The position numbers were made by a program, and so were the translations under genes. DNA of 64,000 nucleotides, from NCBI RefSeq assembly GCF_000027125.1, contig NC_017626.1; one strand, written 5' to 3'. The notes under the pieces were generated by a model, which did not search any database, was not told the DNA's origin, and was given only the letters and a program-made list of their open reading frames with translations. The stretch comes from Escherichia coli 042 (GTDB taxonomy: Bacteria > Pseudomonadota > Gammaproteobacteria > Enterobacterales > Enterobacteriaceae). Below, piece after piece: positions 8,552-8,877 of this stretch. Numbering within the stretch: position 1 is the stretch's first letter; every line of letters begins with the position of its first letter.

Positions 8552-8877
8552 CGTTCATCCACTTTTGGGAGCTGAAATATGCTTTATCCAGACACTGGAA
8601 GACGTAGCCTAGTACAATATCTGTCAGGCTCCACAGGAGAACCGGATGGCAGAACAGAAAATCGCAGGATGTTTATGGACACGATAGGAGAAGCAGTATT
8701 GCGTTCATGTCAACCATATGTAAGAACCGTATTTAACTCTGTAGTGGTGTTGAACATAATGAGAACCACCCACATAGTGAGCATGGATGTTGCTCATCTG
8801 GCGAATATCAGTGCCAGTGGGCAAATGTTCAATTACAGTTTATCATTTTTGGGGATGAAACATGTTATACTTATGTT

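Follow-up and report, generated by a model that had tools for sequence, protein, structure and literature searches.

[quoted passage not shown] As proposed, non-coding and relatively GC-rich DNA of ~390 nt would have been inserted exactly between the tssK stop and the tssL start in the ancestor of the aai-type (Sci-2, T6SS-3) clusters, and would have been inherited by all of them; it would be transcribed as part of the AggR-dependent aai operon, and it would break the translational coupling of tssK and tssL that is seen in distant relatives, leaving tssL to be initiated independently at a near-invariant GGAGG-N5-GTG. The larger part of this spacer (~8504-8786) would have little or no sequence-specific function; its 5' end appears to drift at about the synonymous rate, and the part as a whole would be free to gather frame-breaking indels and to tolerate deletions and repeated insertions of IS elements. 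The last ~90 nt appear to be under purifying selection as the translation-initiation region of tssL, possibly together with an internal promoter.

The tssK-tssL junction of the aai cluster

The window carries the aai/Sci-2 (T6SS-3) cluster of enteroaggregative E. coli (EAEC), as identified by sequence identity and by gene order, including aaiC in the RefSeq annotation: the 2360-nt tssK-tssL stretch matches the E. coli 55989 chromosome and O104:H4 strains at 100% identity, and the RefSeq genes around the gap are aaiC/Hcp2, tssF, tssG, vgrG, DUF6931, PAAR, tssA, tssJ, tssK, DotU (tssL), tssM, and tssH. This cluster is activated by AggR (PMC6392122; PMC5048182). The following features define the junction:

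7139-8551, plus strand: tssK (aaiL), stop codon TAA; Pfam T6SS_VasE positions 1-427 of 429, TIGR03353, RefSeq annotation
8485-8490, plus strand: slippage-prone A-tract remnant at the end of tssK; AAAAG in the window, A6 or A7 in plasmid lineages
8552-8889, plus strand: annotated gap; visible portion of the lineage-specific spacer at the tssK/tssL junction, which is non-coding and ~390 nt long (~8487-8877)
8880-8892, plus strand: Shine-Dalgarno motif GGAGG (8880-8884) and tssL start codon GTG 8890; near-invariant motif, RefSeq start, alignment with outgroup N-termini
8890-9480, plus strand: tssL (DotU family; aaiN in the aaiA-P naming), complete; Pfam DotU positions 2-199 of 205, TIGR03349 positions 2-200 of 211

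Within the annotated cluster, the tssK-tssL junction is the only one wider than 18 nt; all others overlap or are separated by at most 18 nt, and RefSeq annotates no feature inside the gap. The gap measures 326 nt when it is ended at the first possible start codon of the open reading frame listing (8552-8877, GTG 8878), and 338 nt when it is extended to position 8889, in front of the RefSeq start (GTG 8890). A sequence-only reading of the window had given 327 nt; apart from this small correction, its description of a conspicuous gap in an otherwise tightly packed cluster stands, as do its observations that the gap contains a 104-codon reading frame (8579-8893) and is less AT-rich than its surroundings (G+C content 0.43-0.47, against 0.32-0.40 in the flanks). 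That reading had offered three explanations – a scar left at the tssL start by a deletion or frameshift, a small gene, or an internal promoter. The internal promoter is possible; the reading frame itself is real, but neither a scar nor a conserved small gene is supported by the evidence presented below.

TssK is complete against its profiles, and its conserved core ends near position 8486 with the residues VELVLSQEK; the last 22 codons (8486-8551) contain no conserved TssK sequence and read into the spacer. After the shared VELVLSQEK, the protein continues with YAVSRPKQDNGSFHPAVGR to its stop in the window, and with NMQ or ICSKPSSG to the stop in other lineages, and the outgroup TssK proteins end 3 or 4 residues past the motif that matches LVL. 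These different short tails arise because the length of the A-tract varies (A4G, A6, A7); lineage L003 (A6) and lineages L005 and L016 (A7), for example, have spacers that are ~99% identical and yet have different tssK ends. By this alignment, positions 8487-8551 encode a lineage-specific C-terminal tail that is derived from frameshifts, and since the tail belongs to the spacer, the homologous spacer is ~390 nt long (~8487-8877) and thus longer than the visible gap. The arrangement resembles tssM of Citrobacter rodentium, where an A homopolymer in a T6SS core gene reportedly sets the reading frame by its length (PMC4256274); in contrast to that case, the tract considered here lies in the last few tssK codons, alters only a short and non-conserved tail, and differs between lineages in the form of fixed DNA variants.

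At the other side of the gap, tssL offers three in-frame GTG codons (8878, 8884, and 8890), the last of which is the RefSeq start. The motif GGAGG(T/C)NCNG(G/T)TG is almost invariant over the lineages, with a single G-for-A change in L032, and the outgroup N-terminus MMSIVNCY aligns with (L)VNIVECY of the window; in full, the protein begins with MMSIVNCYMPVF in the outgroups and with (MEVL)VNIVECYMPVF in the window. The tssL start is therefore most likely GTG 8890. Apart from the unusual spacing itself, it is the ambiguity among the three GTG codons that could suggest a scar, with the tssL start lost or moved by a deletion or frameshift, but this explanation is extremely unlikely: TssL covers the DotU profiles from position 2, its N-terminus aligns with those of the outgroups, all relatives with intact genes carry the same spacer, and the gap resembles neither tssK nor tssL nor the outgroup junctions. 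No missing N-terminal part of DotU was found in comparisons with Pfam, TIGR03349, and the outgroup alignment; TssK is complete as well, and the sole frameshift-like feature is the poly-A tract at the end of tssK, not at the start of tssL.

Distribution, origin, and rearrangement of the spacer

The spacer is present in 97 of 5,426 complete E. coli genomes, always within this type of T6SS cluster, on chromosomes as well as on plasmids (mostly IncF); in 27 of these 97 records it is only partly alignable. The 5,426 E. coli genomes contain no copies outside T6SS clusters, and the phage collection contains no copies at all. Every aai-type cluster examined, chromosomal or plasmid-borne, contains a homologous spacer of 332-388 nt; the spacers of the plasmid clusters, one of them on a Salmonella Newport plasmid, share ~73-80% identity with the window spacer and have no annotation inside. 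A DNA-pattern scan of metagenomes recovered 25 loci, all of them from lineages already found, plus one deletion variant. The GTDB species representatives contain no aai-type TssL, and neither these representatives nor the 25 metagenome loci include an intermediate lineage with an intact gene in the spacer.

The more distant plasmid clusters of Yersinia enterocolitica, Rahnella aceris, and Enterobacter soli resemble the aai cluster in gene order (tssA-tssJ-tssK-tssL-tssM) and in their homologous proteins, with TssL 33-41% identical. The sequence-only reading had suggested aligning homologous clusters to see whether tssK and tssL normally abut, and in the distant clusters they do: the genes overlap by 4 nt in Yersinia and Rahnella, and lie 2 nt apart in Enterobacter soli and 34 nt apart in a second E. 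coli plasmid lineage. In contrast to these coupled junctions, ~390 nt lie between the two genes in the window, and the coupling is lost. The same reading had allowed that homologous clusters might show the wide spacing together with a conserved small reading frame of known function; close relatives indeed share the spacing, but a conserved small frame is absent. Since the spacer occurs in all aai-type clusters and is absent in the outgroups, and since both flanking genes are complete, it is an insertion rather than the remnant of a deletion or frameshift; from these comparisons we infer that extra DNA was gained at the tssK/tssL junction by the ancestor of the aai-type lineage.

Nothing similar that would point to the source of the spacer was detected among IS elements, in the outgroup loci, or elsewhere in the window. 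As a decayed copy of a known gene it was rejected: translated in all six frames, neither the window spacer nor the reconstructed plasmid ancestor matched a Pfam family at E <= 10, and tblastn had no hits in the outgroup loci or in other parts of the window. An internal duplication of tssK or tssL was rejected as well (local alignment scores not above those of shuffled sequences, p = 0.39 or higher), and short direct repeats within the spacer, such as CTGGCGAATAT and CTGGTGAATAT, occur at chance level only. Searches for the remnant of a mobile element (IS or MITE) found no additional copies in the genomes, no terminal inverted repeats, and no Pfam match in any frame. The pentanucleotide ATATG flanks the spacer in plasmid lineages, as read from the alignments, which could be due to chance; excising the spacer together with one ATATG copy would recreate an ATGA stop/start overlap, and the A7-type lineages suggest that tssK ended differently in the ancestor.

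In relatives, the spacer has repeatedly been a target of IS elements. Two segments are relevant here:

8706-8750, no strand assigned: indel-rich IS-landing zone; breakpoints of independent IS insertions in homologous clusters
8541-8648, no strand assigned: segment with the start of the 104-codon frame, missing in metagenomic lineage L044 (106-nt deletion); alignment

The relatives show at least four independent IS insertions around 8706-8750, in addition to the 106-nt deletion and a 14-nt deletion. In the cases examined, the inserts consisted of IS110-family (L006) and IS3-family elements (L012, L013, and L014; the L013 element is itself interrupted by IS30) or of other IS debris (L007); an old fragment with 85% identity to IS3 is found in L014 and L038. 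Lineage L005 carries an insert of ~35 nt; over a core of 31 nt, it is identical to the left end of the element that L012 has at the same site, and therefore an IS element had arrived here and was then mostly deleted. In spite of the IS elements in their spacers, L006, L013, and L014 retain tssL and tssM annotated as intact; for selection on these two genes after the IS3 insertion, the comparison of L014 and L038 yields 3 differences in 1843 nt, which are too few. Direct repeats of 11 nt (8538-8548 and 8643-8653) border the deletion in L044, and on the evidence of this alignment the segment 8541-8648 is dispensable at least in L044. The plasmid clusters offer a comparison, with IS110 and IS3 elements in the same ~45-nt zone and, in L005, a solitary IS end; unlike these decayed IS scars, the window spacer lacks transposase homology as well as terminal inverted repeats and is not copied elsewhere in the 5,426 E. 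coli genomes, and by these sequence features it cannot be called an IS remnant.

The 104-codon reading frame

The one sizeable reading frame inside the gap already has a place in the databases:

8579-8893, plus strand: 104-codon open reading frame, annotated hypothetical protein; GenBank 'putative type VI secretion protein' of E. coli 042, and B7LFQ1_ECO55 of strain 55989

Its 104-aa sequence is identical to the GenBank entry for E. coli 042 and to UniProt B7LFQ1_ECO55; it is the same object, in the same position between aaiL and tssL, as the hypothetical open reading frame of the EAEC aai cluster in these databases. The annotation varies, with some versions giving a 74-aa protein from an internal ATG and RefSeq giving none. 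By gene order and product name, it is probably EC042_4574A, an extra CDS listed between aaiL/EC042_4574 and the next gene (PMC6392122 Table S3), and by gene order it is probably also aaiM of the aaiA-P naming, with the proviso that the letters are inconsistent between papers. An IS110 element has been placed 'between aaiL and aaiN' (PMC10562709), and a plasmid cluster was described as carrying aaiA-P 'except aaiM' (PMC6279748); in PMC6392122 Table S3, aaiM is assigned to the next gene after the reading frame. Past aaiL, the letter names of the papers differ by one letter. A function for the product was not found reported in the accessible literature.

From its pattern of variation, the frame is judged to be unconstrained and open by chance in the EAEC chromosomal lineage, and not to encode a conserved T6SS protein. 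In every plasmid lineage the homologous frame is broken by stops, frameshifts, or loss of the start: the start is lost in L003, L016, and L019, stop codons occur in L002, L015, L004, and L019, and indels of 1, 2, 4, 14, and 15 nt shift the frame. A parsimony reconstruction of the plasmid-clade ancestor contains two in-frame stops, and the frame of the window is a mosaic of two ancestral frames; even within the chromosomal lineage, a frameshifted 92-aa variant was found. The proportions of variable sites at the three codon positions (0.37, 0.49, and 0.37) show no third-position excess, and the Nei-Gojobori omega of the frame (0.54-0.73) falls among out-of-frame controls (0.49-1.03), compared to 0.12-0.20 for tssK and tssL. 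Searches of 5.8 billion clustered proteins and 1.84 billion representatives returned only the sequence itself, the 92-aa variant, and noise; domain searches gave no Pfam family and two chance-level NCBIfam matches far below the cut-offs (E = 0.055 and 0.18). A single-sequence AlphaFold2 model consists of generic helices at low confidence (pLDDT 62, pTM 0.30).

A real protein of the EAEC lineage, encoded by this frame (EC042_4574A, probably aaiM) either as a young gene or as a bridge that restores coupling or provides protection from Rho, appears improbable in view of these results. In its favor, the chromosomal lineage differs from the plasmid lineages by several indels and still has the frame open, and only 1.8% of 5000 dinucleotide-preserving spacer shuffles contain a frame of 104 codons or more, which is mildly unusual and not compelling; the ATG at 8579, 27 nt past the tssK stop, is preceded by GGGAG at a distance of 7 nt, the TGA stop overlaps the tssL GTG 8890, the region appears to be transcribed together with the operon, and GenBank annotates the frame in strains 042 and 55989. 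These points have to be weighed against the broken frames of all plasmid lineages and of their reconstructed ancestor, the omega values at the level of control frames and the evenly spread variation, the frameshifted variant inside the lineage itself, the lack of homologs, and the low-confidence structure model; furthermore, the deletion in L044 removes the start region, some annotators call only 74 aa and RefSeq nothing, and a published plasmid cluster has aaiA-P without aaiM (PMC6279748). Of the small gene suggested by the sequence-only reading, the existence of the frame and its GenBank record remain; conservation, coding-type selection, and homologs are absent. The omission of this frame by RefSeq is thus supported.

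Transcription, constraint, and candidate signals upstream of tssL

In published RNA-seq data for an aggR mutant of EAEC 042, the log2 fold changes run from -2.90 for tssK and -2.74 for EC042_4574A to -2.86, -2.94, and -2.78 for the genes that follow (PMC6392122 Table S3). These flat values fit read-through from the aaiA promoter with no additional input, and would imply, on the basis of fold changes rather than read coverage, that the spacer is co-transcribed with the AggR-dependent aai operon. With tssK-tssL coupling broken by the spacer, tssL would have to initiate on its own, which directs attention to the sequence just upstream of its start:

8787-8877, plus strand: constrained 3' block of the spacer; pairwise identity 0.81-0.86, the most conserved block, kept in all lineages
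8818-8846, plus strand: candidate sigma-70 promoter; -35 TGGGCA, 17-nt spacer, -10 TATCAT, 9 of 12 matches
8834-8871, plus strand: candidate AggR-type promoter; TACAGTTTATC, 21 nt, extended -10 TGTTATACT

Conservation along the spacer was compared to a neutral reference, the four-fold degenerate sites of tssJ, tssK, and tssL, with pairwise identities of 0.60-0.76. Positions 8504-8600 (identity 0.62-0.83) are at this neutral level, positions 8601-8705 are somewhat more conserved than these, and an indel-rich block (8706-8786) separates them from the 3' block. Of the whole spacer, only this 3' block survives in those lineages that have diverged furthest or have been rearranged by IS elements (L014, L038, L021, L026, and L027), and it leads directly into the near-invariant GGAGG, 5 nt, and GTG; it probably carries signals for tssL expression. 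Constraint may also extend beyond the 3' block, for example to 8601-8705; spacer divergence amounts to ~0.21-0.27 per site against 0.30-0.40 at four-fold sites, with the caveat that the gapped alignment inflates identity. The 3' block was also considered as the C-terminal end of an IS3-family transposase, since the transposase fragment in L014 reads in frame into it; this origin was rejected, as IS3 homology, like the Pfam rve_2 alignment, extends no further than L014:2872, the exact position at which spacer homology sets in.

Nucleotide constraint without coding constraint, as seen in 8601-8705 and 8787-8877, is also what would be expected of a structured cis-regulatory RNA or of a small RNA, encoded on either strand and controlling the downstream membrane-complex genes. 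This explanation is very unlikely. Rfam contains no credible family (inside the gap, the top hit reaches 16.9 bits at E = 8.2, with the gathering score at 42), and the folding energies are ordinary compared to shuffled sequences (z = -1.17 on the plus strand and -0.70 on the minus strand). In a consensus fold of seven lineages, 8 of 90 pairs stay paired through double changes, which speaks for a structure, but the covariation term contributes only -0.37 kcal/mol out of -65, and the spacer tolerates large deletions and IS insertions.

An internal promoter in the 3' block, driving tssL-tssM-clpV independently of the aaiA promoter, would overlap with the preferred reading of an old insertion constrained at its 3' end; the question is whether a promoter is conserved in addition to the ribosome-binding region, or the ribosome-binding region alone. 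Such a promoter could be a constitutive sigma-70 promoter in all lineages, or an AggR-type promoter in EAEC, sharpened by a 6-nt deletion. The 3' block is more conserved than four-fold sites, and its constraint reaches ~100 nt upstream of the start, beyond the needs of ribosome binding; moreover, in lineages where an IS element has entered the spacer, the 3' block persists along with intact tssL and tssM reading frames. The sigma-70-like hexamers TGGGCA and TATCAT, 17 nt apart, both sit in columns that are conserved among lineages, but sigma-70-like matches are no more common in the spacer than in shuffles (4 vs. 3.4). A sigma-54 promoter in CTGGCGAATATCAGTGC was rejected by eye, since the distance between GG and GC is wrong by one position and other lineages do not share the GC.

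The AggR-type candidate resembles the AggR-dependent promoters of EAEC (Yasir et al., 2018; PMC6392122) in its TATC with an upstream A/T-rich tract and an extended -10 element 21 bp downstream. The published definition comprises WWWWWWWTATC with at most 2 mismatches and a -10 element 21-23 bp downstream (PMC6392122); TACAGTTTATC (8834-8844) fits this consensus with 2 mismatches, and TGTTATACT (8863-8871) follows at a spacing of 21. A scan of both strands of the 64-kb window (128 kb in total) gave 8 such matches with a -10 element of at least 5/6, of which 2, including the candidate, also have the TG. As a caveat, the match was found post hoc, and AggR sites are degenerate; the arrangement occurs in the window only, where its -10 element arises from the 6-nt deletion found only in the EAEC lineage, and AggR would be missing from most plasmid lineages. 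The published promoters lie upstream of operons and were tested experimentally, whereas the candidate is located inside an operon, has its 2 mismatches in the A/T tract, and would produce a transcript leader of only ~12 nt; the flat RNA-seq fold changes over the gap do not reveal any extra AggR-dependent input. Considering both sides, an internal promoter of either kind is possible but rather unlikely, and the promoter suggested by the sequence-only reading is therefore still a candidate, now narrowed to ~90 constrained nucleotides with sigma-70-like and AggR-type-like sites.

A further scenario would combine these elements: the EAEC lineage may have co-opted a drifting spacer, with the 6-nt deletion at once removing a stop, and thereby opening the 104-codon bridge frame, and creating the extended -10 element, so that an AggR-type internal promoter or an emerging protein resulted. 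This joint scenario is regarded as a long shot; if true, AggR would act on the membrane-complex and ClpV genes from an additional site inside the operon, or the spacer would be giving rise to a new protein.

Several elements of this picture were already known, since the hypothetical reading frame of this well-studied cluster is present in databases, and earlier papers mention an IS110 element inserted here and a plasmid copy that lacks 'aaiM' (PMC10562709; PMC6279748). The additions made here are modest: the reading frame does not appear to be a conserved gene, the spacer is best understood as a lineage-specific insertion at an otherwise coupled junction, the TssK tail would be a frameshift product, and constraint seems limited to the 3' end of the spacer. 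For annotation, it follows that the final 22 residues of the annotated TssK represent a frameshift-derived tail. The overall significance is small and the finding largely ordinary; possible wider interest is confined to the candidate internal promoter before tssL, perhaps of AggR type in EAEC. For the biology of type VI secretion, the aai-type lineage would have lost the translational coupling of tssK and tssL, and would have obtained within its operon a spacer that serves as a tolerated landing site for IS elements; this tolerance may explain why many plasmid copies of the cluster carry IS elements at this position and yet have intact reading frames downstream.

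Borders of the spacer and ends of the flanking genes

In the plasmid lineages, the motif ATATG occurs at both borders of the spacer between tssK and tssL (window 8487-8492 and the plasmid-lineage equivalents of 8866-8872); excision of the spacer together with one ATATG copy would yield ...GAA AAA ATA TGA with ATG AAT..., a junction with a 4-nt stop/start overlap that resembles the tssK/tssL overlap of the outgroups. The paired motif could be a target-site duplication, or it could be a chance occurrence; the right-hand copy is absent from the window, where it has been removed by a 6-nt deletion.

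At the extreme 3' end of tssK (window 8485-8551), the length of an A-tract varies by lineage (A4G in the window vs. A6 or A7 in plasmids), and is unequal even among spacers that are ~99% identical. These length differences give TssK three distinct short C-terminal tails; the 22-residue tail of the window runs into the spacer. The start codons of tssK, tssL and tssM are ambiguous; for tssL, the outgroup alignment and a conserved GGAGG favour a predicted start at 8890.

Start positions in the window
tssK: TTG 7121 in the mechanical ORF list; 7139 in RefSeq
tssL: GTG 8878 in the mechanical ORF list; 8890 in RefSeq; a further in-frame GTG at 8884
tssM: ATG 9477 in the mechanical ORF list; 9486 in RefSeq

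Insertions and a deletion within the spacer

The spacer is interrupted in ~27 of 97 E. coli records, and among the homologous clusters at least four independent IS insertions fall within a single zone of ~45 nt; they comprise an IS110-family element and three different IS3-family elements, one of which is itself interrupted by IS30.

Spacer IS zone
window 8706-8750: insertion zone; loci L006, L012, L013, L014, L038, L007 and L027

A short insert of ~35 nt in another homologous locus (L005:2785-2820) occupies the same spacer position as the IS3-family element of plasmid pJKHS016_1 (L012:3285-3360), and over its 31-nt core it matches the left end of that element exactly; the insert is a solo IS end, the remainder of the element having been lost. 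The spacer of the PEC41 lineage (L014) contains unrelated debris besides an IS3 fragment, including an 80-nt piece (L014:2525-2605) with 76% identity to window 20892-20967. In metagenome contig OGOX01000320.1 (L044), the 5' part of the spacer lacks 106 nt, equivalent to window ~8541-8648, and with them the start of the 104-codon ORF; this deletion is bounded by the direct repeats CGGTTGGCAGA (window 8538-8548) and CGGATGGCAGA (window 8643-8653).

Downstream DNA and distribution of the clusters

RefSeq features downstream of clpV/tssH
window ~15640-16377 (L001:16520-17257): frameshifted IS3-family transposase pseudogene, adjoining clpV/tssH, with an annotated "AL1L pseudoknot" feature
from window ~17050 (L001:17930 onward): group II intron reverse transcriptase (ltrA), after the pseudogene

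In pJKHS016_1, the same pair follows the truncated T6SS cluster. Clusters of the aai type (T6SS-3; plasmid loci L002-L007 and L012-L020) are frequent on E. coli plasmids, mostly IncF, from hosts isolated from animals, food and humans; a pAA plasmid (L020) and a Salmonella Newport plasmid (L015) each carry one as well. A GTDB scan with one genome per species found no aai-type TssL, and the lineage appears restricted to the accessory genome. On plasmid pWP7-S17-ESBL-04_2 (L003:3529-5519), the tssM gene lying 3' of the spacer carries a frameshift in the annotation; decay is under way in at least some of the plasmid-borne copies of the cluster.
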